From: a virus
Taxonomy: Duplodnaviria > Heunggongvirae > Uroviricota > Caudoviricetes
Virus record (IMG/VR): IMGVR_UViG_3300046462_000479
Reading direction: 5' to 3' (one strand)
DNA: 64,000 nt
The notes beneath the pieces are model-generated. The model saw only the letters and a list, made by a program, of their open reading frames with translations, was not told the origin of the DNA and searched no databases. A program made the position numbers and the translations under genes. The first letter of the stretch is position 1; every line of letters starts with the position of its first letter. Positions 412 through 23,652 of the stretch are shown piece by piece.

Positions 412-1104
412 TCAGACAGTGTGACATGTCACACTCAAAAGCTGATGGCCGAGGAGTTCCGTGTAGGCGGGCGGGATCGCTTCCTTCAACGCCTGCCAAT
501 CAGAGGACCAGTCGATCCCCAAAGCCTCGCGCGCCAGCTGGACTTTCTCCCGCCGGGAAAACTGGCCCTTCCCGACACCGTACTTACGGCGCGCATAAGC
601 CGGATGATGCCCGTAAATCCCGATCGTCTGCTCCCGCCAACACCCGGCACACACCGGCACGAACGGCATCCAGTTCGCCTCAAACAACCGATGCCTACGC
701 AACATATACCGGCCCGCCGGGGCTGAACACCCAGCGTAAGTGACGCCCAACCCGAACATGCTCCCACACAACAACACCGGATCATGGAGTGGAGCACCCT
801 CCACGTTCTCGATCACGAACGGCAAACCCGACGCGGTTAATTTCTCCCGGACCTGCTCGATCAGCCTCGGATGGAAACGATTCGCCCCCGGCAGAATCCT
901 CGTGGACGAGTACGCCTGACATGGAGGCGAAGCGTGCACCGCATCGAACCCGTCCAACGGGAAGGTGAGCGCGTCCGCACATATGAACTCGAACGGATAG
1001 TCCGGCTGCGGCACGATGTCCACGCCCACCACCTCGAAGCCTGCACGCGCATACCCGACGGCCGCGCCACCGAGCCCGCAAAACAGGTCAATTAACTTGA
1101 CCAA
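412..1104 (-). CDS. DNA (cytosine-5)-methyltransferase (Dcm-like), TTG start
   Basis: Motif I FCGLGG, catalytic PPCQ, ENV motif; 230 aa. Confidence 0.85.
   Translation of the reverse strand: MVKLIDLFCGLGGAAVGYARAGFEVVGVDIVPQPDYPFEFICADALTFPLDGFDAVHASPPCQAYSSTRILPGANRFHPRLIEQVREKLTASGLPFVIENVEGAPLHDPVLLCGSMFGLGVTYAGCSAPAGRYMLRRHRLFEANWMPFVPVCAGCWREQTIGIYGHHPAYARRKYGVGKGQFSRREKVQLAREALGIDWSSDWQALKEAIPPAYTELLGHQLLSVTCHTV
419..434. repeat. 16-bp palindrome GTGTGACATGTCACAC
   Basis: Perfect match. Confidence 0.9.
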
Positions 1105-1126
1105 GGGTACCCCCAGGGTGTATACT
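1097..1126 (+). promoter_or_regulatory. promoter TTGACC-N18-TATACT with TG upstream of the -10 and a C-rich spacer; divergent from the methyltransferase gene
   Basis: Consensus hexamers; SD GGAGG 10 nt downstream; one of a family of four. Confidence 0.55.
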
Positions 1127-1174
1127 TTAGTTAATGGAGGAGATGGATTCCTCCCCTAGCGAAAGGAGCGGGAC

Positions 1175-1372
1175 ATGCCGCTCGCAATCGTCCTGAAGTC
1201 CAAGCAGGGCTTCAGCGACTACATCCTCCCCCGCCGGTACGACACCCTCGGGGACGCGCTCGATGCGCGAGCAAAGAAGCGCGAGATGAACGGCGAGTCG
1301 ATGTTCCAGACGCGAGAGATCGCCGAGGTCATCGACACCAAGCGCACCACCAAGATCGTGCGCTTCCTCTAG
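1175..1372 (+). CDS. hypothetical protein (65 aa)
   Basis: ORF track; SD AAAGGAGCGGG upstream. Confidence 0.55.
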   Translation: MPLAIVLKSKQGFSDYILPRRYDTLGDALDARAKKREMNGESMFQTREIAEVIDTKRTTKIVRFL

Positions 1373-3285: not shown

Positions 3286-3301
3286 GTGTGACATGTCACA
3301 C
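3286..3301. repeat. 16-bp palindrome
   Basis: Perfect match. Confidence 0.9.
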
Positions 3302-4008: not shown

Positions 4009-4209
4009 ATGAAAGCTGAGCTGCTCACCAAACAAGGCGGCCACGTCGCCTCAATCGAAATGCCGTTCTTCATGACCCCACCCCAAGTGGTGGTATGGGG
4101 TGAACGCATCTTCGTCCACGACGACAGGCCGTTCGTCGAGTCAGAACACGGACACACCTACTACGAAGCATTCGCATGGGCCTACGCAGAACCGATCGGC
4201 GCAACATGA
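4009..4209 (+). CDS. hypothetical protein (66 aa)
   Basis: Internal ATG of the track ORF. Confidence 0.5.
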   Translation: MKAELLTKQGGHVASIEMPFFMTPPQVVVWGERIFVHDDRPFVESEHGHTYYEAFAWAYAEPIGAT

Positions 4210-4301
4210 GCCGCGAAATGAAAGGCATCGTCGCGATCGTCGCCTACGGCATCGTTTTGTGCACCGTGATGCTGTTAAACCACTACGGATATGGAGTGTG
4301 A
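4206..4301 (+). CDS. 31-aa membrane peptide (MSREMKGIVAIVAYGIVLCTVMLLNHYGYGV)
   Basis: ATGA overlap; hydrophobic. Confidence 0.3.
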   Translation: MSREMKGIVAIVAYGIVLCTVMLLNHYGYGV

Positions 4302-4551
4302 CATGTCACACACAGCAGTCGAAACAGTCGGAGAAAGGATCAGACGTCTCCGAACAGAACTCGGCATGAGCCAACGCGACCTCGCAGAACCCGAATACAC
4401 GTTCGCGTACATCAGCCATCTGGAAGCAGGCAACCGGACGGCCAGCCTCACCGCCCTCGTCAAATTCGCGGAAAAGCTCAACACCAGCGCCCTCTATCTC
4501 CTCACTGGCGACGAGCATCGCGACTGCCCATTCTGCGGACGGCACGAGTGA
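4291..4551 (+). CDS. XRE-family helix-turn-helix DNA-binding protein (Cro/CI-like); an alternative start is the ATG at 4303, at the palindrome centre
   Basis: RIRRLRTELGMSQRDLAE...ISHLEAGNR HTH signature. Confidence 0.8.
   Translation: MECDMSHTAVETVGERIRRLRTELGMSQRDLAEPEYTFAYISHLEAGNRTASLTALVKFAEKLNTSALYLLTGDEHRDCPFCGRHE
4296..4311. repeat. 16-bp palindrome; its central ATG is a candidate start codon
   Basis: Perfect match; GGAG 7 nt upstream. Confidence 0.9.
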
Positions 4552-4709
4552 TGCTAGTCGCAATCAGCAGCCTGCAAGCGCTCGTCCGCAACATGCACAA
4601 CCTCGAACGGCAAGGCATGAACGTCCCCGCCAGCATGTACGGGCGGGCACACACCCTCCTCAACGCGCTCAACCACCACATCGAAAGAGAAAGGAAATCC
4701 CATGAGTAA
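4551..4709 (+). CDS. hypothetical 52-aa protein
   Basis: TGATG overlap with the upstream stop; not in the track. Confidence 0.3.
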   Translation: MLVAISSLQALVRNMHNLERQGMNVPASMYGRAHTLLNALNHHIERERKSHE

Positions 4710-4846
4710 AAGAATGCTTGAACTCACGATCCATTACGCGACCGCGTACCGCTGGAACCATGCGTGACCCAGCACGCATCCCCTTGACCCGTGGTACTGG
4801 GAAGAGGACGAGTGGCTGCGACGCATCGACCTATTCAGGAGGGAAC

Positions 4847-5224
4847 ATGGAACTCAAAGTGGGCGACAAGATCACCCGGTACATGAGCGACGAACAGATA
4901 CCCATCCCAGCAGAAGTGTTTGCTGTCGACGACGACTACGTCTACCTCAGCAACGGGGTAATGACCCGCAAAGATCAATGCTGGAAGTTCGACAAAACCT
5001 GCGGGTATGAAGTCGACGAAGAGCTGGGGCTAGGACGGATGGAGGACGGCACCGTTCTGACCAGCAGCTACATCCCCGTCAAGGAATACGGGCCGCCAGA
5101 ACTACTCACTCGCGACCAGCTGATCGCGCTGAAACTCGCCGCCGTCGCCAAACGCGATGGCGTGTCGAAAGAAACGGCGCTCAGCCTCATTTTGGGCTTC
5201 ACAGATAGGCCGGAAGGAGTGTGA
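4847..5224 (+). CDS. hypothetical protein (125 aa)
   Basis: Internal ATG after AGGAGGGAAC; the upstream part of the track ORF is not protein-like. Confidence 0.5.
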   Translation: MELKVGDKITRYMSDEQIPIPAEVFAVDDDYVYLSNGVMTRKDQCWKFDKTCGYEVDEELGLGRMEDGTVLTSSYIPVKEYGPPELLTRDQLIALKLAAVAKRDGVSKETALSLILGFTDRPEGV

Positions 5225-5234
5225 CATGTCACGC
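5219..5234. repeat. palindrome variant GTGTGACATGTCACGC; its central ATG is the start of the next gene
   Basis: One mismatch. Confidence 0.85.
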
Positions 5235-5633
5235 CTAGCGCTTCCCTGCATCGCCTGCGGCCGCGAACTACACAACGTCGACGACATGGCTGGCAATCAG
5301 CCGTACAACGGCACCGCGTTCACGACGCATGGCCACTACGGGTCCACGATCTACGACCCGATGGACGGCCACTACCTCGAAATCAACGTATGTGACGCCT
5401 GCCTCGCACTCCATCCGGAACGGGCACTCGAAGGCCGCGACCGCAGACCCGTCATGGAAGACGGGGTCATCGTCCGATTCGAGGACGTGGAATGGCAGGA
5501 GATGCCGTGGATGCCAGATCCCGAGTCGATCGACTATGCGCTCAAGGTCACGCGCAAGGAGAGCGGCATCGACGACCTCAATCCTCTTCGCCAGATTCCA
5601 GTTCCGGAGTCTGATCCCCCAGCTGCAGCCTGA
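5226..5633 (+). CDS. Cys-rich (CIACG...CDAC) hypothetical protein, 135 aa
   Basis: ATG inside the palindrome; SD GGAAGGAG. Confidence 0.55.
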   Translation: MSRLALPCIACGRELHNVDDMAGNQPYNGTAFTTHGHYGSTIYDPMDGHYLEINVCDACLALHPERALEGRDRRPVMEDGVIVRFEDVEWQEMPWMPDPESIDYALKVTRKESGIDDLNPLRQIPVPESDPPAAA

Positions 5634-6045
5634 ACTTCACCGCGTCCGCGTTCTGGCCCGCGAACTCGATCCGGGTCGGGATGTGGTATTTCTCGGGATG
5701 GCGGCGTTCAAGCAGCCATTCCAGATGTTTGGTGTCGAACTCCTGGACCACGCCGACCAGCTGGCCGCGCTGAAAGATCGGCCGCTCGTTCGGTTCTAGC
5801 GCACGCCGGACGTTCTCGTATTCGAGAGCGTCGTCGATCATTTTTTGCGCGGCGTCGTACAAGGCCGAGAATCGTGGCGACGCTTTCCGTCGTGACTCGA
5901 CCGCGTTCGGGTGTACGCCAGCAGCCCTGGCTGCTTTGCCGATGATCGCGTACTCGTTCACGAGGGCCTCCAGGAAATCTTTCTCCCATGCTTCCGGAGG
6001 CCCTTCGTCCTCGAACAGATTTACTTCGTCTTCGGAGTGTGACAT
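5578..6045 (-). CDS. HTH protein resembling the terminase small subunit N-terminal HTH
   Basis: AIIGKAARAAGVHPNAVESRRK...ALYDAA motif; start ATG at the palindrome centre. Confidence 0.5.
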   Translation of the reverse strand: MSHSEDEVNLFEDEGPPEAWEKDFLEALVNEYAIIGKAARAAGVHPNAVESRRKASPRFSALYDAAQKMIDDALEYENVRRALEPNERPIFQRGQLVGVVQEFDTKHLEWLLERRHPEKYHIPTRIEFAGQNADAVKFRLQLGDQTPELESGEED

Positions 6046-6052
6046 GTCACAC
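6037..6052. repeat. 16-bp palindrome (supplies the ATG of the minus-strand gene)
   Basis: Perfect match. Confidence 0.9.
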
Positions 6053-6937
6053 TACTTCGGTGCGGTATCCGTTGCCGTCCCGGTAGAGGGCGTGCCGTTG
6101 TGTGCAGCGGCCGCAAACGATGTAGCCGAGCGGCCTTTCTGGTCCGTCAACGGGTACGACCTGGACCGGATATTCGCGGCCGAGCGTGTCGATCCTGGTT
6201 TCCGTGGAAGGCCTTTCCACGTCTCGTTCGATCTGGGCTCGGACAGCCTCGACTGTTTCGGGCGCAGGCTGGGCTGTTTCTTCTTGGCGCATCCTGTTCC
6301 GGATGGAGCCGACGGTCGGGTGCGACACTCCGCAAACCTCTGCGATGCGACGGTCCGAGCGCGACCAGTCGCGTTGTAGCTCTTTGCGTACGAGCGACTG
6401 TTTCTGCTCTTTGGTCAGTTGGCGTCGGTTCGCGTTCAGCGCGATCGACAGTTCGTATTCGCCTGCCTGGTCGAGGTCGGACACGAACACGACCGGGATC
6501 TCGGTCAAGCCCAACAGTTTGCTGGCCATCAGCCGGTGACGGCCGTCGATCAGCATGTGGCGGCCGATCACGATCGGCACCCTGACGCCTTCGTCCTCGA
6601 TGCTGTTGATCAGCGCCCGCTGTTCTTCTGCGCTTAGGTCAGGCAGCGGCCCCGATTGCAGCTCGATCTCGCTCCTCAGTTCCGCCAGGAGCGACGAGGC
6701 CGAGGATGGCGAGAGCCCTAGCTCGCTGGCGAGGGTAGTCAGGTTGTAGCCATCGCTCATCTCGTCCGCTAAGAGCAGTTTGATCGCCTGCGCCCTCGGG
6801 GACAACGCCTCCAAGTCCACCGTCCGGTAGTTCGTCGAAAACGTAGTCGGGGGTTCGGGAGCCGTTTCTTCCGAGAACTCGTCTGGGGCCGACGTCGACG
6901 GCTCGTTGGCTACATATCCATCGTCCGTACTGCTCAA
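6047..6937 (-). CDS. ParB-like nuclease-domain protein with C-terminal HTH (TTG start)
   Basis: PIVIGRHMLIDGRHRLMASKLLG ParB/Srx core; HTH VSHPTVGSIRNR. Confidence 0.7.
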   Translation of the reverse strand: MSSTDDGYVANEPSTSAPDEFSEETAPEPPTTFSTNYRTVDLEALSPRAQAIKLLLADEMSDGYNLTTLASELGLSPSSASSLLAELRSEIELQSGPLPDLSAEEQRALINSIEDEGVRVPIVIGRHMLIDGRHRLMASKLLGLTEIPVVFVSDLDQAGEYELSIALNANRRQLTKEQKQSLVRKELQRDWSRSDRRIAEVCGVSHPTVGSIRNRMRQEETAQPAPETVEAVRAQIERDVERPSTETRIDTLGREYPVQVVPVDGPERPLGYIVCGRCTQRHALYRDGNGYRTEVV

Positions 6938-7184
6938 AAGTGGCCATCCTTTCCGGGTTGTAGCGGGCCTCGCATCGGTGCAGGATGATGATTAATTCTT
7001 GGAGCGAGTCGTCGTAGAAGCTGGGGCGTAGGAACATGCCCCAGCCGTCGAAGGCGTCGTCGAGGTACTTGCGGCAGAACACTTCTGCGTCCTCGACTGG
7101 TCCTGGATGCCAGCGGGTCGGCCTGCGGTTGAGGTCGTAGGCTGACGCACCGATTTTCAGGGGCTCGGGTAGGAGACGTTTCAC
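6938..7184 (-). CDS. hypothetical protein (~80 aa; 3' end uncertain, its frame runs on into the ParB gene)
   Basis: N-terminal 80 aa of track ORF 6639..7184 are protein-like; the rest overlaps the ParB gene out of frame. Confidence 0.35.
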
Positions 7185-7222
7185 GCTCGTCCGCGAGTGT
7201 AGTACAGGCGACCGGACAGACC

Positions 7223-7252
7223 TTGATCTACCCCACCCCAGTCATGTATACT
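7223..7252 (+). promoter_or_regulatory. promoter TTGATC-N18-TATACT (TG-extended, C-rich spacer)
   Basis: Same family as 1097, 20082 and 21533. Confidence 0.5.
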
Positions 7253-7329
7253 AATGTAATGGAGGGGAGGTACGGGCTGTCGGTCAGCGGCCCGGAGAGC
7301 GGCTGCAACCCGCAACTCCCCTCCTCACA

Positions 7330-7345
7330 GTGTGACTTGTCACAC
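7330..7345. repeat. palindrome variant GTGTGACTTGTCACAC (centre TT); lies in the 5' leader, ~+75 from the promoter
   Basis: 33-bp block identical to 11411-11444. Confidence 0.85.
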
Positions 7346-7364
7346 TCCTAGCGGAAGGAACCTG

Positions 7365-7571
7365 ATGCTTGCACCAGCAGAAGCGATCGGCGTCGAGCAG
7401 ATCATCCCCTCGACCGGACCGCACGAGCAGATCCTGGTCGGCCACGAGCAGGTGGTGGCACTGCACTTCTTCGAGGCGATCGACTATGACCCGGAGTACG
7501 GTCCGGGCGCGAAGGTGTACCGGCCGGTAGGGCTGGCGGACGCAGCCACGATCAGAGGATGGTTGGCGTGA
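7365..7571 (+). CDS. hypothetical protein (68 aa)
   Basis: ATG after GGAAGGAACC. Confidence 0.5.
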   Translation: MLAPAEAIGVEQIIPSTGPHEQILVGHEQVVALHFFEAIDYDPEYGPGAKVYRPVGLADAATIRGWLA

Positions 7572-7846
7572 TGGGAGAGTTCAAGGAGCTACGTAACGAG
7601 ATTTCTGACAACCCGGCCGGGTTCGATCAGATGAAGGCGCAAGCGCTCGAACTGCTGCGCGACACGGGCGCCTACCTGTTGATGGCGAAGCAGGACAACG
7701 GGTTGCATTGTTTGGCTGCGGTCGAGCCGGGCGTGAACTCGGACGAGTTCATGCTCGGGATAATGCAGGGGATGACAGAAATCCTTGAACGAATGGAGGA
7801 TCTGAGCGAGGAAGCAAGGAGGCTTGACGATGGCCAAGAAGCCTGA
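7571..7846 (+). CDS. hypothetical protein (91 aa)
   Basis: ORF track (GTG/ATG). Confidence 0.5.
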   Translation: MGEFKELRNEISDNPAGFDQMKAQALELLRDTGAYLLMAKQDNGLHCLAAVEPGVNSDEFMLGIMQGMTEILERMEDLSEEARRLDDGQEA

Positions 7847-8036
7847 GCCGGTGCAGGGTTTCATGTTCGAGACTGTCGGGGAAGCTGACGGCCGTAACGA
7901 GACGGTCTGCAAGATCATTGAGCGGGCCACTACCGACAACTCGTTCGAGAACGGATGCGCGTTTCTTGTCGAGTTCGGGGACGGCCACCAGATGGAGGCT
8001 TTCGCGTCTGAGCTGCGACCCTGGTATCCGCTCTAA
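7830..8036 (+). CDS. hypothetical protein (68 aa)
   Basis: ORF track. Confidence 0.45.
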   Translation: MAKKPEPVQGFMFETVGEADGRNETVCKIIERATTDNSFENGCAFLVEFGDGHQMEAFASELRPWYPL

Positions 8037-8038
8037 CA

Positions 8039-8054
8039 GTGTGACATGTCACGC
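8039..8054. repeat. palindrome variant ...CACGC; its central ATG is the start of the next gene
   Basis: One mismatch. Confidence 0.85.
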
Positions 8055-8870
8055 CAATGGGGCATAAGAGAACCGGGCGACCATAAGGTCGTCTGCAAGG
8101 GTTGCGGCACCTTGTTTTACACGCGTGACGGCAAGAAGGCGTATCACTCTCCCGAATGTTCGCAAAACGACCAGAATCGGAAAAAGTCTGCGTCCAATAA
8201 AGGCAAGGCGTTCGAGTTGCGTCGCATGTCTCGCCAGTCGCGGATGCGTGGTTCGACGAGCTTGTTTGATTGGGACCTTGATCCTGACGTGACACGAGCA
8301 GATGATCCGTATGCGCGAGTGTACGATCAGCTGGTGGGGGCTGGGGATGGGACCGCGGACGTTTTGCGGCTTCTTTCCAGGGGGATCGTCTGGGGCAAGC
8401 ACGCCGAGTGTGACATGCCGGAACGGTTCGAAGACCGTCTGATGATCCGGCTGCGGTCGATGGTCGCGAAGCATTGCGGTGTTTCTGAGGTCGATTATCT
8501 GGGGAGGTCCAAGATGGAGCCAAGGCTGCCTGGCATTCAGGTGATCAAGGTCGAGGACGGGTTCGCGGAATCGGTCACTCCGCCCGTCTGCGATTTCTGC
8601 GGGGACATAGGACCCGAGTGGGAGTACGGGTGCGAAGATTTCTACATCGAGGAGATACCGTCCCCGTTCGGGGGGCGGTGTTGGGCGTCCACGGGAGAGT
8701 TCCTGGCCTGCAATGAGTGCTCGGGTCTGATCGACCGGAAGTCAAAGGCGAGCCTGCTGGTTCGGGCCGCTTTCGTTCTGCATTCCGACGAGAAGATGTT
8801 GGAGCAGTCCTCGCGGATCATGCAGGGATTCTTCGACCATATGACCGGAGAAAAGAGGCCGTTTGGCTGA
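8046..8870 (+). CDS. Zn-finger/Cys-rich hypothetical protein (274 aa)
   Basis: CKGCG...HSPEC; C-terminal CDFCGD...CNECS. Confidence 0.6.
   Translation: MSRQWGIREPGDHKVVCKGCGTLFYTRDGKKAYHSPECSQNDQNRKKSASNKGKAFELRRMSRQSRMRGSTSLFDWDLDPDVTRADDPYARVYDQLVGAGDGTADVLRLLSRGIVWGKHAECDMPERFEDRLMIRLRSMVAKHCGVSEVDYLGRSKMEPRLPGIQVIKVEDGFAESVTPPVCDFCGDIGPEWEYGCEDFYIEEIPSPFGGRCWASTGEFLACNECSGLIDRKSKASLLVRAAFVLHSDEKMLEQSSRIMQGFFDHMTGEKRPFG
8408..8417. repeat. isolated half-site GTGTGACATG inside a CDS
   Basis: Half of the palindrome only. Confidence 0.3.
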
Positions 8871-9040: not shown

Positions 9041-9056
9041 GTGTGACATGTCACAC
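9041..9056. repeat. 16-bp palindrome
   Basis: Perfect match; the Ku GTG start is 14 nt downstream. Confidence 0.9.
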
Positions 9057-9912
9057 AGGGAGGTTCGCTGTGAAGACGATAATCAACGCGACGGTGCAGT
9101 TCGGGATGGCTGCCATCCCGGTGGCCGTTGCGTCAGCTCTGAACACGACGAACGATCCGTCGTTCAAGCTGTTGCATGAGCCGTGCCATCAGCCGGTGTC
9201 GAGGTCTGGTGGGGGCGGCTCGAACGGTGGCGGCTACTACTGCCATCACTGTGACACGTCTGCGGACGTGACGGTGCACGGTTTCGAGTACGCAAAGGGC
9301 GAGTTCGTCTGGTTCACGGACGCGGAGATGGCGAACGTGAAGCCGGACCGGGAGCCGGTGATCGTGCTGAAGAAGTTCGTGAAGGCGACGTCGATCAAGC
9401 CGGTGATGGTCGACAAGCACTACTTCTTGAAGCCGTCCGAGATGGCAGCGCTGGCTGACCCCTACGGGCAGCTGTACTCGGCGCTGGCGAAGCTGAAGGT
9501 GGCTGGTGTGGGCACGCAGACGCTGTGGGGGAAGGAGCATCCCTGTGCGATCGTGGCCAACCAGGACTACGCCTCAGGTGGGGTGCTGATGATGCTGACG
9601 CTGATGCTGGCAGAGGATCTGGTTGATCCAGACTTTGCTGCTCCGGTGCCGTCGGCGGCCCTGCGTGCGTCTGCGCAGACGGCGGTGGCCGGTCTGATCG
9701 ACGAGTTGAGGCCGGAAGATGACTTGGTGTCGGAGTCGCGTGACCGGACGAAGGACGCGATCACGGCCAAGGTCGAGGGCCGCGAGATCGCTGTCGTGAG
9801 GCCGCAGGAGACGCTGGAACCGGTGATGGATATCGGGCAGGCGTTGCAGCAGGAGATCGCGGCCCGCAAGAAGGCGTCGAAGCCGAAGCCGAAAGCGAGG
9901 GCGAAGGCATGA
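9043..9912 (+). CDS. ku: Ku-like DNA end-binding protein (the likely real start is the GTG at ~9070)
   Basis: FGMAAIPVAV...SFKLLHEPC...YFLKPSE...MLTLMLAEDLVDPDF align with the bacterial Ku core. Confidence 0.85.
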   Translation: MTCHTGRFAVKTIINATVQFGMAAIPVAVASALNTTNDPSFKLLHEPCHQPVSRSGGGGSNGGGYYCHHCDTSADVTVHGFEYAKGEFVWFTDAEMANVKPDREPVIVLKKFVKATSIKPVMVDKHYFLKPSEMAALADPYGQLYSALAKLKVAGVGTQTLWGKEHPCAIVANQDYASGGVLMMLTLMLAEDLVDPDFAAPVPSAALRASAQTAVAGLIDELRPEDDLVSESRDRTKDAITAKVEGREIAVVRPQETLEPVMDIGQALQQEIAARKKASKPKPKARAKA

Positions 9913-10262
9913 GTATCTCTTCGGGCGACATTGGTCGCCTGTCCGTCGAGCTGCAGGCCCGCTTCCCGGAAGAGGACAACGCGTCCCGTCTGGACGGCTG
10001 GCTGGCGTCAGCTGATATCGACGAGGAGGCGTTCGAGACGCTGATCCAGTCGGCAATCACCGGGTTTTTGCAGCTGTTGCAGGAACGCATCCAGAAAGGG
10101 GGTGACGAGAGGATCGAAGCAGAGGACGCCGACGGTCGCCGGATCGAGATGTTCGGGCTGGACGTCGGCAGCCTGGTCGGCAGCATCGCTTGCAACATGT
10201 TCATTCTCGGTTTCGAAACAGCGACCGAGTACGGCAAGCGTGACATGTCACACGTCGAGTAA
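9909..10262 (+). CDS. hypothetical protein (117 aa)
   Basis: ATGA overlap with ku. Confidence 0.5.
   Translation: MSISSGDIGRLSVELQARFPEEDNASRLDGWLASADIDEEAFETLIQSAITGFLQLLQERIQKGGDERIEAEDADGRRIEMFGLDVGSLVGSIACNMFILGFETATEYGKRDMSHVE
10238..10253. repeat. palindrome variant GCGTGACATGTCACAC
   Basis: One mismatch. Confidence 0.85.
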
Positions 10263-11413: not shown

Positions 11414-11429
11414 GTGTGACTTGTCACAC
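11414..11429. repeat. palindrome variant (centre TT), with the same 33-bp block as at 7327
   Basis: Identical flank CCTAGCGGAAGGAA. Confidence 0.85.
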
Positions 11430-11450
11430 TCCTAGCGGAAGGAAACAACT

Positions 11451-11861: not shown

Positions 11862-13400
11862 GTGGCCAAAGCTAACAGCCTGGTCGCTGAGCGTTGGGCT
11901 CACGGCCTGGTCAGTAAGGGCGTGGCCGCGCACCTGTGGGGGGGCACCGTTGTCATCGACGACAGCGGTGTCCTCCACTATCACCGTAAAGGCGGTGATC
12001 GCAGGTATGCGTGGGGGCCTGTCGTGTTGGGCCGGTATCTACCTAAGTCCCGGACGGTGCTGCTGAACGGGGACGGGTTCACGGACCGGCACGCGACCGA
12101 CTGGCAGACGAATCTACGAAACGAGGTGCGCAGACAAGTTCACGCCAATCCGGACAGCAAGTATGTCCGCAATGTGGCCATCGTGCCGTTCGCTGCTTTG
12201 GAGGCGGCCGGGGTCACGGTCGACACGTTCCGTCCCATCCATGTTGTCCAGGACGAAAACGAGCAGGTGTTCCGCCGTCTTCCGCACGTCACCAAGTCGG
12301 AACTGGAGCCGATCGGCGTCCACCAGGAGAAAGACGCTAGGTGGTTGTGGCAGGGGTCGGTGGAAGGACGGCAGTACCAGTACACCGAGTTCGGCGTGTA
12401 CGGATACGTAAACACGAGGACGGGCGAGAAAACAAATGACCGTGACGTCTATGGCGGCTGGCCTCGTTCTGAGTTGAAGTGGCAGGTCGTCGCCCACAGG
12501 GAAACGAATCAGTCGTGGACGGCACGCCAGGCGGTCGGAGGGTGGGCGTGGGTGCGTTCGCTTCCCACCCAGGAGGCGTTTGCCGCGTTAGTACAGGAGC
12601 GTGTCACTGCCAATATCTCCTCGTTGCGGACGGGAAGGCCTTTGAATGTTGGTCCTCTCCCGGAAGAGCCGGGCATGTACATGATCGAGGATATCCACCA
12701 CCTCGGCGCCTGCCTGTTTTCGGCTGAGAGCGTGGATGGCGGCCGCCACAAGTTCTTGTCGGCGTTCGACGAGGCCGAGCCGCAGCAGATGTATTTCCTC
12801 GCTCAGCTTCCGGACGGGTCGGGTGCGAAAACGTATGGGGAGGCGCTGTTGGCGTTGGCTCCTCCGATCGTGCATCAGGCAAGGCTGGAGGGAAGGAACG
12901 TGTTCCGGCAGGGCGACGTGTTCGCCATCGAAACGACTATGAGCGACGGGGAGGTGTATGCGCTAGCGAAAACACGGGTCCGGCGGAACGTCGTCATGTA
13001 TGCCGACACCGTCCACCAGATGGTCGCGGTGATAAACGGGACCGGGACAGAGCCGACGGTACGAGCTGGCGAACTCAGAGAGAAGGTGGAGTGTCCGTGT
13101 AAGTGCGGGCATAAGCGGTGGATCGGCTGGGGGCCGAAAGCGAAGCGGGCCCTGTCGATCTACCGGACCGGACATACGGCCGACGAGGTGGTGGTGTCCG
13201 CGAAAGGCACCACCTACGTCAGGGGACAGATGTACCACGATCCCGGTTTGGAAGATCCGGGGCGGCGGGAGGAGCATCAGTCTGTCGTTCTCGGCAGCGG
13301 GAAGTGGTGTATCGCTGTCCGTAATACGGTTCCGCGCCAGTCGGCGCGGCGGGCCCGGCAGCAGGCCGAGGCAACTACGAGAGAGGAGACACCGGTATGA
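11862..13400 (+). CDS. large hypothetical early protein (512 aa)
   Basis: Long ORF with good composition; C-terminal CPCKCGH; no motif recognised. Confidence 0.65.
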   Translation: MAKANSLVAERWAHGLVSKGVAAHLWGGTVVIDDSGVLHYHRKGGDRRYAWGPVVLGRYLPKSRTVLLNGDGFTDRHATDWQTNLRNEVRRQVHANPDSKYVRNVAIVPFAALEAAGVTVDTFRPIHVVQDENEQVFRRLPHVTKSELEPIGVHQEKDARWLWQGSVEGRQYQYTEFGVYGYVNTRTGEKTNDRDVYGGWPRSELKWQVVAHRETNQSWTARQAVGGWAWVRSLPTQEAFAALVQERVTANISSLRTGRPLNVGPLPEEPGMYMIEDIHHLGACLFSAESVDGGRHKFLSAFDEAEPQQMYFLAQLPDGSGAKTYGEALLALAPPIVHQARLEGRNVFRQGDVFAIETTMSDGEVYALAKTRVRRNVVMYADTVHQMVAVINGTGTEPTVRAGELREKVECPCKCGHKRWIGWGPKAKRALSIYRTGHTADEVVVSAKGTTYVRGQMYHDPGLEDPGRREEHQSVVLGSGKWCIAVRNTVPRQSARRARQQAEATTREETPV

Positions 13401-13677: not shown

Positions 13678-13770
13678 TGAGTACAACCGATTGGCAAAAC
13701 TGGCTGGTGGCCGCTTCGGCTCTGGTGGTTGTGGTCATCGTGGGAGTAGTGATGTGGCGTGGACATTAAG
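13678..13770 (+). CDS. 30-aa membrane peptide (GTG start)
   Basis: VSTTDWQNWLVAASALVVVVIVGVVMWRGH. Confidence 0.3.
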
Positions 13771-14301
13771 GTGATTTCTGGCGGTCAGATCGGCGCGGAC
13801 ATTGCGGGTTTGCGGGCCGCGCATAAGGTTGGTTTGGAGACGGGCGGATGGATGCCGTACGGGTACCGGACGCTGTTGGAGCCGTTGCCTGTCGATCTGG
13901 TGGAGCGGTACGGGTTGTCTCAGACGACAACGACGGACTATCCGACGCGGACGCAGATGAACGTGGTTGGGTCGGATGCGACGATCCGGTTTGCGCATCA
14001 TTGGTATACGGCGGGGGAGCGGCTGACCCAGAACCTGCTGGTGAAGAACATGCGTCCCCGTTGGGATGTTGAGTTGCGGCAGGTTCCGGTGGAGGGGAAG
14101 CTGCGGCAGATGCGGTGGACGGTGTTCGGGTTCCCGGATCTGCAGGTTGAGGAGTTCGCTGCGGTGACGGCGGAGTGGGTGCGGGACACGTTGCCTGCGG
14201 AGGGCGGCGTGTTGAACGTGGCCGGGAACGCCGACCTGTCGATCGAGACTGTAGTGGAGGAGTTCCTAGTGTTGGTGTTCGAGCGGCTAAAGACAGTGTG
14301 A
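13759..14301 (+). CDS. SLOG-family / putative molybdenum-cofactor-carrier-like (YpsA-like) protein
   Basis: VISGGQIGADIAGLRAAHKVGLETGGWMP...DATIRF. Confidence 0.65.
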   Translation: MDIKVISGGQIGADIAGLRAAHKVGLETGGWMPYGYRTLLEPLPVDLVERYGLSQTTTTDYPTRTQMNVVGSDATIRFAHHWYTAGERLTQNLLVKNMRPRWDVELRQVPVEGKLRQMRWTVFGFPDLQVEEFAAVTAEWVRDTLPAEGGVLNVAGNADLSIETVVEEFLVLVFERLKTV

Positions 14302-14311
14302 CATGTCACAC
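14296..14311. repeat. 16-bp palindrome
   Basis: Perfect match. Confidence 0.9.
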
Positions 14312-16616: not shown

Positions 16617-16814
16617 GTGATCAGCCGTCTGGTTGAGCGGGTGTTGAGTAGGTTCAATAACGAGGACCGTGAGCTGATCCTGCGCTGGCGGATCTGGAAG
16701 ATGCACTGGCTCCCGTACCGGACGGCCGAATGGATCAAGAACGATCAAGACGAGATGGTTCTCGGCCCGTGGAAATGGCATCTGCCGGACAAGATCACGA
16801 AGAAGTGGCCGTGA
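16617..16814 (+). CDS. hypothetical Trp-rich protein (65 aa)
   Basis: ORF track. Confidence 0.45.
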   Translation: MISRLVERVLSRFNNEDRELILRWRIWKMHWLPYRTAEWIKNDQDEMVLGPWKWHLPDKITKKWP

Positions 16815-17014
16815 ACGCGTGGCTGTGGAACGTGTGGTTGTACGTGTCCCCGTTCGTGTTTGTCGCGTTCGGTTTGCGAGCGGGCCGCTACTGGTGGCAG
16901 GAGGGTTGGCGGCTTAACCGGCCGATGTGTTTCGTGTACGCGTTCGATGCGATCGCGTTCACTACGATGGGCCTGGTTCTCGTGGTGTTGTTGGCTGCAG
17001 GCCAGTTTCCGTAG
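16811..17014 (+). CDS. membrane protein (67 aa), GTG start
   Basis: Two transmembrane segments. Confidence 0.5.
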   Translation: MNAWLWNVWLYVSPFVFVAFGLRAGRYWWQEGWRLNRPMCFVYAFDAIAFTTMGLVLVVLLAAGQFP

Positions 17015-17354
17015 GACTGAGCGGACGGGACGGTCTTCCGGTTTTCTTTTTTTTTAGAGCAGACGCAACACATGCGGACGAAAGATCGGAAGAGCCGAGC
17101 CCCACCCCCCTACCCCCCTCCCCAAACGGGGAGAAGAGATCGGAGGGTGGGGCCATGCGTCCGATGAGTCGGAGTCGCGTCGCCCAGCCGGTTCCCACGC
17201 GGCTCTAGCACCAAACTGAAGGTCGATCGACCGGCACCCTCTAACGGTCGGCACCGGGATCTGCTCACTACCAGAGGGCGATTAACCTGCTCGCTGTGGT
17301 AGTGTTCTCCCTGCTCTGCGTGACGGCGAGCAATGTACCACACAACTGACTGAG

Positions 17355-17385
17355 GGGCCCCTCGCCGGAGGGGCCCTTTCTTTTG
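17355..17385 (+). terminator. rho-independent terminator (9-bp stem GGGCCCCTC/GAGGGGCCC, loop GCCG, then TTTCTTTT)
   Basis: Perfect hairpin plus U-tract. Confidence 0.6.
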
Positions 17386-17401
17386 GTGTGACATGTCACA
17401 C
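17386..17401. repeat. 16-bp palindrome
   Basis: Perfect match. Confidence 0.9.
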
Positions 17402-17405
17402 TGGC

Positions 17406-17433
17406 TTGACTTCTCTCGGCAGAGGTGTAGGCT
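17406..17433 (+). promoter_or_regulatory. promoter TTGACT-N16-TAGGCT (actinobacterial TANNNT -10)
   Basis: Hexamers. Confidence 0.45.
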
Positions 17434-17483
17434 CCGATTATTAACCGCGCGCAGGCGCGGGATCCTTCCCGAGAGGAGCCGAG

Positions 17484-18116
17484 TTGATCCTGGACGTCGA
17501 GATTAAGGGCGTCACCTTCCGTGACGTCACAAAAAAGGCGGACGGCAAGCAGATCCGCATCTTCGAGGTCGAAGACCAGAACGGCATCAAGTGGACGACC
17601 AGCCGCCAGGACATCGCGAACGAGGCGTTCCGTCGGGTCGGCCAGATGGCACAGATCCAAGGCCGTGAGGAACAGAACGGCGCCTACCTGAACCGCTACC
17701 TGGACATGGTGTCTGAGCCGGGCGTCCTGACTCCGCCTCCGTCGCAGGAGTTCCCCATCCCCGGCGTGGTGCAGAGCGCCCTCGATGCATCGCTCCCGCG
17801 CGCTCCAATGGCTCCTACGCCTCCGCCCGCGCCCATTCCTCCTTCGGCACCAGCGCAGCCGACGATCCAGCCGAGCGGGCCGACAGAACACGACTGGCAG
17901 ATCTGGCGGCAGGTCGCAGCCAAGGTGTCCGCCACCGTGTCAACCACTGCCCCCGAGTTCTGGAGCAACCTCGACGACCTGGTCCGCTACTTCGCCTACG
18001 GCACCAAGCCCTCCTACGTTCCCGGAGACGCTCCCCGCTTCATCCCGGAGGGTGCGATCCAGGAGAGCAACGCCGAGGGACCGCCGCCGTACACGGACGA
18101 TGATATTCCGTTCTAA
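17484..18116 (+). CDS. SSB-like protein: noncanonical N-terminal domain, Pro-rich linker, C-terminal DDDIPF acidic tip (TTG start)
   Basis: Terminal DDDIPF is the SSB C-terminal tail signature. Confidence 0.6.
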   Translation: MILDVEIKGVTFRDVTKKADGKQIRIFEVEDQNGIKWTTSRQDIANEAFRRVGQMAQIQGREEQNGAYLNRYLDMVSEPGVLTPPPSQEFPIPGVVQSALDASLPRAPMAPTPPPAPIPPSAPAQPTIQPSGPTEHDWQIWRQVAAKVSATVSTTAPEFWSNLDDLVRYFAYGTKPSYVPGDAPRFIPEGAIQESNAEGPPPYTDDDIPF

Positions 18117-19462: not shown

Positions 19463-20085
19463 CCAAGTTCCCCACTGAAAGCAGGGACGTTCAGGGCCTA
19501 GAAGGGGACGAGTACCCGGACTTCAAAGTCGGGCCCGTCTGTGCCGTGCCTGGCTGCAGGCGGCTGACCGACCACGCACACCACCTGTTCAGTAGGGGAA
19601 TGATGGGCGGCGCTTTCAACTGGGTGCTGGTCCCTGACGGCACCGAGATCGGCAACAAGGCCCCGCTCTGCTACCGCCACCACGAACAGGTCACGAACAA
19701 CGAGATCGGCATCACCTACCAAGGGGGCCGCTTCTTCTGGGAGGGCGAGCCACTGTCATGGCAACCACCCAAGAAGGGCGGCCCCGAGGAGGTGTCAGTA
19801 ACAGAGCAGGAGGAACGCCCGGTCTGTCCCGGCTGTGGCCGCAGGATGCCAAAGCCTCGGATCGACACACCCGTTGAGGAGAAGAAGCGCCGCAAAACGT
19901 GGGCGGTGTCTGTCCCGGCAACAGTGGAAGAGGACGGGGCGGACGTGCTGGACGCCCTGTTGGAGTCCGCCCGCGAGAAGATGGACGCGGCTGGACTCGA
20001 CTGGGGTGAGGGCCAGAAGTACTTCGTGTTGTCTACCGCGCTCGGACTGTTCGTGATGCACGCGGAACAAGTCCTCAGCAATTGA
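19459..20085 (+). CDS. HNH endonuclease
   Basis: CAVPGCRRLTDHAHHL...LCYRHH. Confidence 0.75.
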   Translation: MTKFPTESRDVQGLEGDEYPDFKVGPVCAVPGCRRLTDHAHHLFSRGMMGGAFNWVLVPDGTEIGNKAPLCYRHHEQVTNNEIGITYQGGRFFWEGEPLSWQPPKKGGPEEVSVTEQEERPVCPGCGRRMPKPRIDTPVEEKKRRKTWAVSVPATVEEDGADVLDALLESAREKMDAAGLDWGEGQKYFVLSTALGLFVMHAEQVLSN

Positions 20086-20111
20086 ACACCCCCACTGTAC
20101 TGTGGTATAAT
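20082..20111 (+). promoter_or_regulatory. promoter TTGAAC-N18-TATAAT with extended-10 TGgTATAAT
   Basis: Near-perfect consensus. Confidence 0.6.
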
Positions 20112-20132: not shown

Positions 20133-20324
20133 ATGGCATCGCGCATACGTTGTGAACGATGCGGCTTCATTGTTGAGAGAAAGGAGCGGATACGGTCAAA
20201 ACACACGAACGCCTACTACTGCAAAGACCTCCACCGATGCGACAGACGCAGACGAGGCGACGTCGGCCTCGAAGACATCTTCTCGCTGACCGAGCAATTA
20301 AGGAGCGACGTTGGAAAACTCTGA
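20133..20324 (+). CDS. Zn-binding small protein (63 aa)
   Basis: CERCG...YYCKDLHRC. Confidence 0.5.
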   Translation: MASRIRCERCGFIVERKERIRSKHTNAYYCKDLHRCDRRRRGDVGLEDIFSLTEQLRSDVGKL

Positions 20325-20592
20325 AGAAAAGCAACGCAAGGCTATCGCCGAGATCCAGCTCCTGTACGAGAAGATCAGCCGCGTCCAGTACGAACTGACC
20401 TGGTTCCCGTTCAAGGTCGGACAGCTAGGAGCGATCGGTCAGCTAGGCCCGCCAGAGACAGCCCGTGCGATGATCGAGTCGATGAGAGCCGACATTAATG
20501 ACCTCATGGACGCGACCGAGGCCTGCGCTCTGCAAATGGGACAGCTGTTAGCCAACGTCGAACAAGCACTAGACCGACAAGAAGAAGTGTGA
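20311..20592 (+). CDS. hypothetical coiled-coil protein (93 aa)
   Basis: ORF track. Confidence 0.5.
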   Translation: MENSEEKQRKAIAEIQLLYEKISRVQYELTWFPFKVGQLGAIGQLGPPETARAMIESMRADINDLMDATEACALQMGQLLANVEQALDRQEEV

Positions 20593-20602
20593 CATGTCAC
20601 AC
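20587..20602. repeat. 16-bp palindrome; its central ATG is the start of the next gene
   Basis: Perfect match. Confidence 0.9.
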
Positions 20603-20911
20603 TCTCCGCGCATCTATATCAGTGGGCCGATCAAAGACAACATCGACTACGAAGAAGACTTCGAACAAGCCAAGGCCACCCTAATAATGCAGGGATGGCA
20701 TCCAGTTAGTCCTGCTGATCTACGTTCAGATCATTGGAGCTACGGCGACTACATGCGAGCAGATATTTTGCTTTTGCTTACATGCGAGTCGATCTACATG
20801 CTCAGTGGTTGGAAGAATTCCAATGGTGCCCGTCTCGAATACGAGATAGCAAAGATGTGCGAGATGACGATAGTGTATGAAGCACTAACCGATTACGAGG
20901 AGGAAACATGA
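20594..20911 (+). CDS. DUF4406-like / nucleoside 2-deoxyribosyltransferase-like protein
   Basis: YISGPI...CESIYMLSGWKNSNGARLEYEIA. Confidence 0.6.
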   Translation: MSHSPRIYISGPIKDNIDYEEDFEQAKATLIMQGWHPVSPADLRSDHWSYGDYMRADILLLLTCESIYMLSGWKNSNGARLEYEIAKMCEMTIVYEALTDYEEET

Positions 20912-21321: not shown

Positions 21322-21537
21322 ATGGCTGACGAGATCAAGTACACGAAGCGGAAGACCGTGAGGGTGAGCGGTGCTCTCAGTCGCGAGCTGGGAGAGATCC
21401 AGGTGTACGAGGGGGACGCCAAGTTGCTGGAATGGATCGCCGAATTCCTTGGCTGTAGCAAGGCCGAGGCTGTACGTTCTGCTATCCGCTCAATGGCTGC
21501 CCAGTTGACAATGATTGACAAGCGCTCGCCCCCTTGA
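21322..21537 (+). CDS. ribbon-helix-helix-like small regulator (71 aa)
   Basis: KRKTVRVSGALSREL...SKAEAVRSAIRSMAAQL. Confidence 0.5.
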   Translation: MADEIKYTKRKTVRVSGALSRELGEIQVYEGDAKLLEWIAEFLGCSKAEAVRSAIRSMAAQLTMIDKRSPP

Positions 21538-21562
21538 CCCACCCACGTGTACAATGGTATAC
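21533..21562 (+). promoter_or_regulatory. promoter TTGACC-N18-TATACT (TGg-extended), preceded by two further TTGACA hexamers at ~21504 and ~21514
   Basis: Consensus hexamers. Confidence 0.55.
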
Positions 21563-21573
21563 TATAGTAATGG

Positions 21574-23635: not shown

Positions 23636-23652
23636 TCACTGAAGGGAGAGCA

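Follow-up and report, generated by a model that had tools for sequence, protein, structure and literature searches.

In Cluster EG Microbacterium phages, 18-bp inverted repeats of the sequence GATCAACC-NN-GGTTGATC have been described, to which the passages that introduce them assign no function (Jacobs-Sera et al. 2020, PMC7302621). In a similar manner, Cluster O mycobacteriophages harbor over 30 occurrences of the 17-bp repeat TGTTCGG-NNN-CCGAACA, for which no function is assigned in the sections devoted to it and for which the authors infer a dimeric DNA-binding protein whose role would be outside transcription initiation (Cresawn et al. 2015, PMC4351075). Here we have analyzed a family of 16-base palindromes, GTGTGACATGTCACAC (GTGTGAC-AT-GTCACAC), in a 64-kb stretch of a soil-metagenome phage contig (IMG/VR record IMGVR_UViG_3300046462_000479), the whole of which we refer to as the window. 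The Cluster EG repeats are the closest known system to this family, followed by the Cluster O repeats. On balance, sequence comparison makes it probable that the palindrome is a genome-wide cis element to which a sequence-specific, dimeric DNA-binding protein encoded by the phage binds, and that start codons were overprinted on some of its copies.

The window contains 26 copies of the palindrome with at most three mismatches, of which 14 are exact, compared to an expectation of 0.27 from dinucleotide-preserving shuffles. The conservation extends into symmetric flanks (CCA/GGA on the left and TGG/TCC on the right) to yield the wider consensus SSA-GTGTGAC-AT-GTCACAC-TSS, whose 22-bp duplex form is CCAGTGTGACATGTCACACTGG. 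The C and G next to the center are invariant in all 26 copies, and at position 2/15 three copies would show a C-A mismatch in plus-strand RNA, four a U-G wobble and one a double change. Copies are concentrated in the early region, with 23 among its 52 genes and three among the 43 genes of the late region (Fisher P = 5e-5). Read as codons, the element spells GTG-TGA-c-ATG-TCA-CAC, or GTG-TGA-c-ATG-TCA-CRC if the four junctions where it joins a stop to a start are considered together. Its center acts as start codon in five copies and its TGA as stop codon in five, while in 21 of the 26 the central ATG is not a start codon. Besides the copies with a start at their center, about 14 palindromes end 8–36 nt 5' of a start codon, eight of them at 12–21 nt, with a separate Shine-Dalgarno sequence in between. 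The palindrome is thus at most copies distinct from and upstream of the Shine-Dalgarno sequence, which it directly abuts at 9041 and 14296. In half of the family (13/26), the stop codon of the upstream gene is overlapped or located within 3 nt. Where the intergenic gap measures at least 200 nt, four of six palindromes are found 13–19 nt from the downstream start (P = 1.3e-4), which argues for an association with starts that goes beyond a fitting of the element into non-coding DNA. Palindromes within coding sequence are read in one of two open frames, as DMSH at 54006 and 10238 and as VTCHT at 419.

The family shares with the Cluster EG repeats the 2-bp spacer between the arms, the occurrence of 8–10 or more copies in short gaps, typically 14–22 bp ahead of a start and mostly among small non-structural genes, and the preservation of repeats between diverged relatives, as far as the passages on these repeats describe them (PMC7302621). 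It differs in its sequence and in its 26 copies, and in the same passages the Cluster EG sites are not reported in conjunction with start or stop codons. We have checked these sites in the phage OneinaGillian, with which one early protein (11862–13400) is remotely in common and otherwise no genome relationship is detectable. With the Cluster O repeats, as characterized in the sections that deal with them, the palindromes share dyad symmetry, nearly invariant arms, a higher density in the non-structural arm and a lack of association with promoters (PMC4351075). The likeness extends to the gene repertoire, which includes Ku-like and ParB-like proteins, an AAA ATPase and methyl- and glycosyltransferases near the portal (6047–6937, 9070–9912, 22218–23105, 24344–25834 and 61010–62888 in the window). 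The Cluster O repeats differ by their 3-bp spacer and their sequence, and the same sections describe about one third of the sites as intragenic and the repeats as not closely tied to translation starts, whereas the palindromes of the window are nearly all found at gene boundaries and close to starts. Both reference families belong to actinobacteriophages, while the phage of the window is known from metagenomic soil DNA.

Two further kinds of repeats were considered for comparison. The stoperators of Cluster A (the L5 gp71 sites) are described, in the parts of the literature that we draw upon, as tens of short, near-identical intergenic copies distributed over operons, at which one phage protein silences transcription (PMC4351075, PMC3203893). 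Stoperators measure 13 bp, are asymmetric and oriented with transcription and have as binder the immunity repressor of a temperate phage, whereas the element described here is a perfect 16-bp dyad and is thus no member of this class. The start-associated sequences (SAS) and extended start-associated sequences (ESAS) of Cluster K mycobacteriophages and Cluster EF Microbacterium phages are repeats tied to the starts of a subset of genes, according to the relevant passages (PMC3203893, PMC7302621). ESAS resemble our palindromes as inverted repeats just upstream of starts with a consensus that differs by subcluster, but their 17-bp arms are imperfect and variably spaced. The SAS are asymmetric and occupy the position of the ribosome-binding site, 3–8 nt before the start, where they pair with 16S rRNA, whereas the palindrome is located upstream of the Shine-Dalgarno sequence or holds the start itself and is therefore no member; the passages on SAS and ESAS do not report a start codon within either repeat. 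In the literature, we have found no report of this 16-mer, and the descriptions of repeats in the papers on clusters EG, O and K contain none that supplies start and stop codons.

The overlap of palindromes with start codons was the subject of an earlier note on this DNA, which had named six copies whose central ATG would be an in-frame start preceded by GGAG at position –7, in genes whose products begin with Met-Ser-His/Arg. The features at these six locations are as follows:

4206–4301, plus strand: open reading frame (ORF) for a small hydrophobic protein of 31 residues, MSREMKGIVAIVAYGIVLCTVMLLNHYGYGV, which ends in GTG-TGA inside the palindrome.
4296–4311: exact palindrome; TGA 4299–4301 ends the ORF 4206–4301 and ATG 4303 probably starts the XRE gene, with GGAG 6 nt before the ATG.
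4303–4551, plus strand: XRE-family helix-turn-helix (HTH) gene, 82 residues, starting with MSHTAV; Pfam HTH_3 with 1.4e-9, HTH_19 at residues 10–69.
4847–5224, plus strand: gene for 125 residues; its final codons GTG-TGA form the left arm of palindrome 5219.
5219–5234: one mismatch to the palindrome (GTCACGC); the upstream gene stops at its TGA and the next one starts at its ATG (5226), with AAGGAG 6 nt before the ATG.
5226–5633, plus strand: gene 16, a Cys-rich protein of 135 residues from a widespread phage family, which begins with MSRLALPCIACG.
5578–6045, minus strand: small-terminase-like gene, 155 residues, starting with MSHSEDEV at the central ATG 6045–6043; phrog_4044 with 1.8e-17.
6037–6052: exact palindrome; on the minus strand, TGA 6049–6047 ends the ParB-like gene and the ATG starts the small-terminase-like gene.
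6047–6937, minus strand: ParB-like gene, 296 residues with two HTH regions; ParB_N at residues 99–163, HTH_23 at 194–219 and many ParB-like PHROG matches.
8039–8054: palindrome with one mismatch; its ATG 8046 is the start of the HNH-like gene, and the stop of the upstream gene is 2 nt ahead of it; preceded by CTAACAG without Shine-Dalgarno sequence.
8046–8870, plus strand: gene 22, HNH-endonuclease-like, 274 residues, which begins with MSRQWGIREPGDHKVVCKGCG; phrog_1271 with 2.9e-5 at residues 12–99.
20311–20592, plus strand: gene for 93 residues, which ends in GTG-TGA inside palindrome 20587.
20587–20602: exact palindrome; TGA is the upstream stop and ATG 20594 the DUF4406 start, without GGAG upstream (AAGAAGAAG).
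20594–20911, plus strand: DUF4406 gene, nucleoside 2-deoxyribosyltransferase-like, 105 residues, which begins with MSHSPRIYISGP; PF14359 with 1.2e-22, phrog_355 with 3e-25.
53901–54371, minus strand: gene for 156 residues directly after the major capsid gene (TAA-ATG junction), which reads ...QGDMSHSF....
54006–54021: palindrome with one mismatch inside the gene 53901–54371 (minus strand); ATG 54014 is Met120.

All six locations named in the note hold an exact copy or one with a single mismatch, and judged from their coding context the central ATGs at 5226, 8046, 20594 and 6045 (minus strand), and probably that at 4303, are real start codons, while the sixth, at 54006, encodes an internal methionine. 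The expected N-termini are also found, with MSH at 4303, 20594 and 6045 (minus strand) and MSR at 5226 and 8046. In contrast, GGAG precedes the start on the coding strand only at 4296 and 5219, and is replaced by ACAG at 8039, by GAAG at 20587 and by GTAG in the minus-strand gene at 6037; the GGAG sequences at 6037 and 54006 are located on the other strand. A Shine-Dalgarno sequence is thus absent at three of the five starts (8046, 20594 and 6045 on the minus strand).

For the small-terminase-like gene, an in-frame TAG 9 nt upstream makes 6045 the first possible start, and the protein aligns from its first residues with its homologues (MSHSEDEVNLFEDEGP, MSHSEDEVNLF, compared to MAESLNLFSEEGP, MAESLNLF, and MAESPEIVDEGP, MAESPEIV, in the related contigs L049 and L052). 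Both public gene calls that we compared, from JGI and Logan, assign 155 residues, and the homologues in relatives equally lack a Shine-Dalgarno sequence. Gene 16 has 69 detected homologues, nearly all of the 26 aligned ones begin at the same column with the consensus M[SA][RK]xALPCIACG, and an identical product of 135 residues is on record from JGI and Logan. A further in-frame ATG located upstream, at 5157, would entail a 68-nt overlap with the preceding gene, in a stretch without coding signal. The mismatch of palindrome 5219 turns CAC into CGC and thereby His into Arg3, in line with the R/K found at residue 3 of the family consensus, which looks like a compromise between the needs of palindrome and protein. 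Distant homologues of gene 16 in unrelated phages (L140–L144) have an ordinary Shine-Dalgarno sequence and ATG and no palindrome. In case of the DUF4406 gene, residues 6–95 match profile positions 2–91 of 91, the start is the only one in the ORF and the same start is on record for six contigs. For gene 22, no start in the ORF precedes 8046, residue 17 marks the beginning of a CxxC...HxxxC motif, and over the first 66 codons a coding score is obtained in this frame alone; its length is 274 residues in Logan and 208 in JGI. The start of the XRE gene at 4303, which has GGAG at an ideal distance and an HTH profile match from residue 10 on, is probable and not certain, since an alternative in-frame ATG at 4291 would give an N-terminus equal in length to that of the L052 homologue, which is 44% identical. 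One caller places this start at 4303, the other at 4366, with a JGI form of 61 residues. The preceding ORF 4206–4301 has an ATGA overlap with the stop before it, a coding score of 6.2 compared to –25.6 and –2.6 in the other frames, and is called by JGI and Logan. Conversely, in the gene 53901–54371 the first 119 codons score 25.5 compared to –28 and –42 in the other frames, no stop precedes Met120, the phrog_6480 match at residues 93–153 spans this residue and both callers assign 156 residues. At the junction of this gene with 53612–53899 (minus strand), the sequence at 53897–53906, GGGTGACATG, forms a stop-c-start that matches the left arm and center of the palindrome exactly, without its right arm.

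At four of the junctions (4296, 5219, 6037 on the minus strand and 20587), stop and start are found on the same strand 1 nt apart (TGA-c-ATG), and the entire 16-mer is accommodated in two final codons of one gene and three initial codons of its successor. At 8039, with the arrangement TAA-N6-ATG, the palindrome supplies a start codon but no stop, and at 14296 it supplies a stop but no start. The overlap with start codons is best read as overprinting under genome compaction, and neither as a separate device nor as a new regulatory principle. The element can be kept even where the spacer shrinks to a single base, since this variant happens to read GTG-TGA-c-ATG-TCA-CAC, so that the upstream gene ends on a valine codon and stop in the left arm and the downstream gene begins with Met-Ser-His/Arg in the center and right arm. 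The first three residues of five proteins would then be dictated by the element. Such overlap is possible only because the variant of this phage continues as ATG-TCA-CAC, whereas the variants GCGTTAC and GCGTCAC found in relatives lead to ATG-TAA and ATG-TGA. The three starts without Shine-Dalgarno sequence probably rely on termination-reinitiation 1–9 nt past the upstream stop. Stop-start distances as at the four TGAcATG junctions fall into a range that has been linked to coupling in the portion of the literature concerned with it (PMC10666635). The likeness to coupled junctions consists in co-directional genes with stop and start 1 nt apart, but ordinary junctions of this kind are not set in a conserved 16-bp palindrome. 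The claim that regulatory site and initiation region coincide thus stands as a physical description of five genes, which are a minority of a family of 26 copies. It does not extend to the dedicated switch that had been proposed, since the usual position of the palindrome is 8–36 nt upstream of a start with its own Shine-Dalgarno sequence, and since the overlap is not kept for the same genes in relatives. Any binder of the other 21 copies would be expected to bind at the five central starts too.

The copies that are not located at the sites described above are distributed as follows:

232–247: center AA; GGGAGG and ATG 24 nt downstream (small ORF, not called as gene).
419–434: exact; last seven codons (VTCHTV*) of the methyltransferase gene 412–1104 (minus strand), just beyond the terminator 371–396.
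1385–1400: exact; 36 nt before ATG 1437, which has AGGAGG upstream.
1825–1840: exact; start 1869 is 28 nt downstream.
2142–2157: center TT, GC at the right end; start 2192 is 34 nt downstream.
2417–2432: left arm GCGTGAC; 12 nt past a stop, next start 62–80 nt on.
2817–2832: both ends changed symmetrically (GCGTGAC..GTCACGC); start 2864 is 31 nt downstream.
3286–3301: exact; start 3319 is 17 nt downstream, in an intergenic gap of 203 nt.
7330–7345: center TT; start 7365 is 19 nt downstream; about 78 nt downstream of the promoter-like site 7223–7252; positional homologue of L052 9128.
9041–9056: exact; 1 nt past a stop; Ku-like start 9070 is 13 nt downstream, with AGGGAGG in between.
10238–10253: left arm GCGTGAC; in the last nine codons (KRDMSHVE*) of the gene 9909–10262, start 10272 is 18 nt on.
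11414–11429: center TT; start 11451 is 21 nt downstream.
14296–14311: exact; TGA ends the gene 13759–14301, the next gene starts with GTG 14324, 12 nt later, after AGGAGG.
17386–17401: exact; between the strong terminator 17352–17379 and a TTGACT-16-TAGGCT promoter-like site.
21846–21861: exact; start 21875 is 13 nt downstream, in a gap of 337 nt.
23620–23635: left arm GCGTGAC; start 23653 is 17 nt downstream, in a gap of 547 nt.
24272–24287: right arm GTCACGC; the first G completes the TAG of the gene 23889–24272, start 24344 is 56 nt on.
27430–27445: exact; 3 nt past the stop 27426, next called start far downstream.
38591–38606: exact; late region, between two weakly supported convergent small ORFs.
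59240–59255: exact; the portal TAG overlaps the last base, the next minus-strand gene has its ATG at 59231, 8 nt away, and the central ATG opens 3–5 codons only.

At 14296, the TGA thus serves as stop while the central ATG is not used as start. The central ATG of palindrome 1385 is in frame with the gene at 1437 and may be an alternative start, with a form of 53 residues in Logan and of 38 residues in JGI. Palindrome 17386, alone among the copies, is promoter-proximal and probably untranscribed, as it follows a GC-rich 12-bp terminator and is 4 nt away from a –35 element. The order of terminator, palindrome and TTGACT promoter-like site (17352–17433) is repeated in L052 (440–520), with the palindrome at 476.

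Four strong sigma-70-like promoter candidates (TTGAyC-18-TATAmT at 1097–1126, 7223–7252, 20082–20111 and 21534–21563) are intergenic, nearly identical and located on the plus strand, 78–480 nt upstream of the nearest palindrome. This distance, and the lack of space for a –10 element and leader before most Shine-Dalgarno sequences, led us to reject the palindrome as a promoter. We have also rejected a hairpin promoter for a phage RNA polymerase, as no such enzyme is recognizable; a terminator, as no T-run follows and scanner matches at the palindromes are weak stems of 6–7 bp; and a REP (repetitive extragenic palindromic) element or integron attC site, as the palindrome is too short, has no accompanying RAYT or integrase and its copies are uniform. 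Downstream of two of the promoter candidates, leaders would measure about 190 nt (before 20311) and 300 nt (before 21875), which leaves room for possible small genes or RNAs. The leader between the promoter-like site 7223–7252 and palindrome 7330 contains a long inverted repeat, GGAGGGGAGG ... CCTCCCCTCC, at 7262–7329. An identical 31-nt cassette, GTGTGACTTGTCACACTCCTAGCGGAAGGAA, which comprises a TT-centered palindrome and a Shine-Dalgarno sequence, is found at 7330–7360 and 11414–11444 before two unrelated genes. The core of the palindrome holds CATG/ACATGT, and the DNA methyltransferase gene that ends inside palindrome 419 (412–1104, minus strand) matches phrog_363 with 1e-33.

The window belongs to an uncultured, siphovirus-like phage from soil, with a GC content of 61%, whose sequence is also found in Logan and JGI soil assemblies in contigs of up to 77.6 kb. 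About 50 small plus-strand genes at 1.1–28.6 kb are followed by a minus-strand block that encodes the portal, a MuF/protease-like protein, the major capsid protein and tail proteins. Recognized early functions include a DNA methyltransferase, the XRE HTH protein, the small-terminase-like protein, two ParB-like proteins, a Ku-like protein, a PD-(D/E)XK nuclease, DUF4406 and an AAA ATPase. A DNA search of isolated phages gave no match and their proteins match only remotely, with at most 40% identity for the capsid, the top matches of which are found in Roseobacter and Arthrobacter phages (40%). Other contigs of the same phage are 99.9–100% identical and for that reason uninformative on microdiversity. 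Among the proteins of the window that were scanned, no integrase or CI-like repressor was recognized, with about 9 kb of the contig located outside the window, and no RNA polymerase is recognizable, although two giant proteins have no family match. Rfam families and tRNAs were not found in the window, including gaps of 550–670 nt without confident gene at 16814–17484, 23105–23653 and 27426–27994.

Protein-based scans of IMG/VR found no relative, and when IMG/VR was scanned for the motif, either as the exact 16-mer or in its L051 and L052 forms, this yielded unrelated single matches or unrelated elements (53–56% GC). A metagenome scan for the 16-mer equally found no relative and mainly satellite-like tandem arrays in low-GC contigs. 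The exact sequence GTGTGACATGTCACAC occurs in the unrelated metagenomic contigs L157, L016/L028/L034 and L036 (53–56% GC) and L152, L204 and L214 (40–44% GC). In one mobile-element lineage it is found upstream of genes with the flanks cc..gg, and in the low-GC contigs it forms satellite-like tandem arrays. Another contig, L180, weakly shares two tail-region proteins with the window. Five related contigs, fragments of 2.6–16 kb that include L049 (SRR14194064_7945) and L052 (HuN_forest_Scaff8915675), were instead reached via homologues of the Ku-like protein. Their motifs compare to that of the window as follows:

Window: GTGTGAC-AT-GTCACAC, 26 copies in 64 kb.
L051: GCGTGAC-AT-GTCACGC, 7 copies in 10 kb.
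L052/L053 and L050: GCGTTAC-AT-GTAACGC, 10 copies in 13.8 kb and 3 in 6.7 kb.
L049: GCGTCAC-AT-GTGACGC, 3 copies in 13 kb, one perfect and the others imperfect.
L054: GCGTGAA-AT-TTCACGC, one imperfect copy in 2.6 kb.

The changes between variants are symmetric and uniform inside each genome, and several copies reside at homologous positions despite the divergence. The palindrome that follows the stop of the 'IRVYAxIL' gene (9041 in the window) is kept in the window, L049, L050, L051 and L054, and L052 retains counterparts of 7330 and 8039. The distance to the following start is not kept: behind the IRVY gene, L049 has this start at the palindrome center, L050 at 20 nt and the window at 13 nt downstream. 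No central start is found among the 13 palindromes of L050 and L052, which read ATG-TAA. The perfect form of L049 reads ATG-TGA, and in the one L049 copy with a central start, a right arm with GTCAC in place of GTGAC abolishes the stop and leaves the frame open. In L051, where the GTGAC variant is open, none of the seven copies has a convincing central start and the small-terminase-like gene starts 8 nt past a palindrome. In L052, neither the XRE nor the small-terminase-like gene has a palindrome at or near its start, the nearest to the XRE gene being two genes upstream, and the palindromes at 3359, 6241 and 9128 abut a Shine-Dalgarno sequence. In L049, with its few and imperfect palindromes, a Sigma70_r2 protein (811–1371, minus strand) takes the place of the ParB-like gene of the others, and a small Sigma70_r4-like protein is found at 8528–8833. 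Gene 22 and palindrome 8039 are both absent from the syntenic junction in L054 (981–1375) and L052 (9380–9760), and gene 22 looks like an inserted cassette with the palindrome as 5' edge.

We favor a site that is read in DNA over an element that acts in RNA, with a confidence that is about evenly balanced, because the invariant C and G at the center could not pair across a 2-nt loop, because position 2/15 varies as would be expected of two independent half-sites, and because the flanks are symmetric and copy 17386 is probably untranscribed. One dimer would act on many transcription units at once, mainly early and non-structural operons, as a symmetric analogue of stoperator-type or KorB/ParB-type multi-site regulators. 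As its binder, we infer the ParB-like HTH protein 6047–6937 to be the best candidate. Several observations weigh against a DNA-level binding site. The candidates for its binder all derive from sequence. The proximity to starts, often with direct contact to the Shine-Dalgarno sequence, would be at least equally natural for an RNA-level element that acts on translation or mRNA ends, the symmetric variants between lineages suit an RNA stem as well as a dimer operator, and the DNA of every palindrome, perhaps except for 17386, is transcribed on at least one strand. Moreover, both 4303 and 4291 remain candidates for the XRE start, and the relatives are fragments of 2.6–16 kb, so that little weight attaches to a missing gene, such as XRE in L051.

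It is conceivable, though we regard it as unlikely, that the palindrome acts as an RNA operator, a hairpin of 6–9 bp with a CAUG tetraloop that would be bound by an RNA-binding protein or endoribonuclease of phage or host to control downstream translation or mRNA processing and stability. For five genes, the start codon would be the loop AUG itself and initiation would be directly blocked by binding, which corresponds to the translational switch of the earlier note. The predicted hairpin has a stability of –5.5 kcal/mol for its core and of about –13 with the flanks CCA/TGG or CC/GG, and at all five starts the AUG is predicted to be more than 98% unpaired in the loop of a 6-bp stem, so that the hairpin alone would not conceal the start codon, whose occlusion would call for a factor that acts on the RNA. 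This proposal would account for the start-proximal copies even in long gaps (P = 1.3e-4), often against the Shine-Dalgarno sequence, and for the 13 of 26 copies at or within 3 nt of an upstream stop, where a terminating ribosome would melt the hairpin; the arm changes between lineages also preserve Watson-Crick pairing. Conversely, in 21 of 26 copies the loop AUG is not a start codon, C-A mismatches at pair 2/15 are as common as G-U wobbles, the core hairpin is weak, and the copies at 17386 and at 476 in L052 follow a strong terminator and precede the next promoter-like site. An RNA-binding protein or RNase is not recognizable and no Rfam family matches. The phages MS2 and PP7 carry a single operator hairpin per genome, which contains the replicase start codon and is bound by the coat protein. 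A predicted hairpin that contains the initiation codon at five genes resembles these operators, although there a single operator with an established RNA-binding protein is contrasted by 26 copies in a double-stranded DNA phage, 21 of them away from starts, and by the lack of a recognized RNA-binding protein. The more specific proposal of a hairpin operator by which a phage factor would control about 20 early cistrons at once in their translation or processing, with the start codon displayed in the loop at five genes, appears to us quite improbable. If true, it would constitute an MS2-like translational operator that is multiplied across the genome of a double-stranded DNA phage, with lineage-specific variants of operator and regulator.

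A minor possibility is that the palindromes are loading or binding sites of a ParB-like protein, comparable to parS, KorB OB or Noc NBS, with a DNA-level function, such as genome organization, partition of an episomal prophage or packaging, that is not chiefly the control of transcription gene by gene. Their location at boundaries would in this case merely reflect that a fixed 16-mer fits there, whereas the start-proximity test rejects uniform placement in non-coding DNA. ParB-family systems have palindromic sites of 13–16 bp dispersed in the replicon, a feature matched by the 26 copies, and the 16-bp dyad with its 7-2-7 organization has the size of known ParB-family sites. The window encodes two ParB-like proteins (6047–6937 and DUF6551 at 22218–23105). 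Homologues of the former are found in all three palindrome-rich relatives (L051, L052 and L053), those in L051 and L052 with 52–54% identity, while L049, with Sigma70_r2 instead, has three mostly imperfect copies in 13 kb, a correlation that rests on four fragments. The proteins of such systems have a ParB domain at the N-terminus and an HTH behind it; the ParB_N score of 6047–6937 amounts to 21.2 bits, below the cutoff of 26.3 that is passed by its homologues in L051 and L052 (30.8 and 32.4 bits). Its recognition helix differs among the three motif variants, although three sequences are too few for co-variation. A point against partition is the catalytic-motif region of 6047–6937, which reads DGRHR, typical of a non-canonical group of ParB-like nucleases, and not the GERRxR of partition ParBs; in addition, no ParA was noticed among the proteins scanned.

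The earlier note had also suggested that the XRE-family protein may be autoregulated. That this protein (4303–4551) binds the palindrome and regulates its own expression via the site over its start codon is very unlikely in our view. The protein is one of few recognizable DNA-binding proteins in the window, its probable start is overlapped by the palindrome, and small XRE/Cro dimers typically bind dyads of 14–18 bp. However, the same palindrome is found at 25 other places, and at the XRE gene it sits in the coding start rather than at a promoter. Further points against autoregulation come from L052, where the XRE gene has no palindrome at its start and the nearest copy is two genes away, and from the 10 kb of L051, where seven palindromes are present and no XRE homologue was seen. 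An XRE-like match near two copies of the 16-mer in the contig L023 turned out to be part of an ordinary CI/Cro-type pair at a distance of 1.3 kb.

Equally improbable are cassette-boundary elements, by which the repeats would edge exchangeable gene cassettes and promote recombination or insertion, so that genes with central starts would have arrived together with the element. The absence of gene 22 and its palindrome from L054 and L052, the scattered distribution of the gene 16 family among unrelated phages and the repeated 31-nt cassette at 7330 and 11414 are in line with such exchange. Contrary to it, palindrome positions are kept across relatives though the flanking genes differ, no recombinase is linked to the palindromes and the fixed distance to start codons is left unexplained. 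For the Cluster O repeats, the relevant section states that few if any take part in rearrangements (PMC4351075). Finally, an annotation artefact, in which the central ATGs just happen to be in frame and true starts are located downstream, as set by the JGI caller for XRE (61 residues) and gene 22 (208 residues) and as the lack of a Shine-Dalgarno sequence at three of five starts might suggest, is highly improbable in light of the conserved sequence that precedes any alternative start in the small-terminase-like protein, gene 16, DUF4406, XRE (HTH helix 1) and gene 22 (zinc-finger-like motif).

Several actinobacteriophage clusters (O, EG and, as ESAS, K) are known to carry short repeated palindromes at gene boundaries. 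To these, the phage described here adds, by way of its relatives, natural variants in specificity, in which arm position 5 is G, T or C and position 7 is C or A and which could be matched to candidate binders, and sites that are locked into coding sequence, in addition to one site (17386) that is probably untranscribed. For annotation, it implies that an ATG within a repeat has to be taken as start of five genes, of which three lack a Shine-Dalgarno sequence, and that two of the starts have been mis-set by one public caller. Since the MSH and MSR codons are open to synonymous recoding, effects on the protein would be separable from effects on the site.

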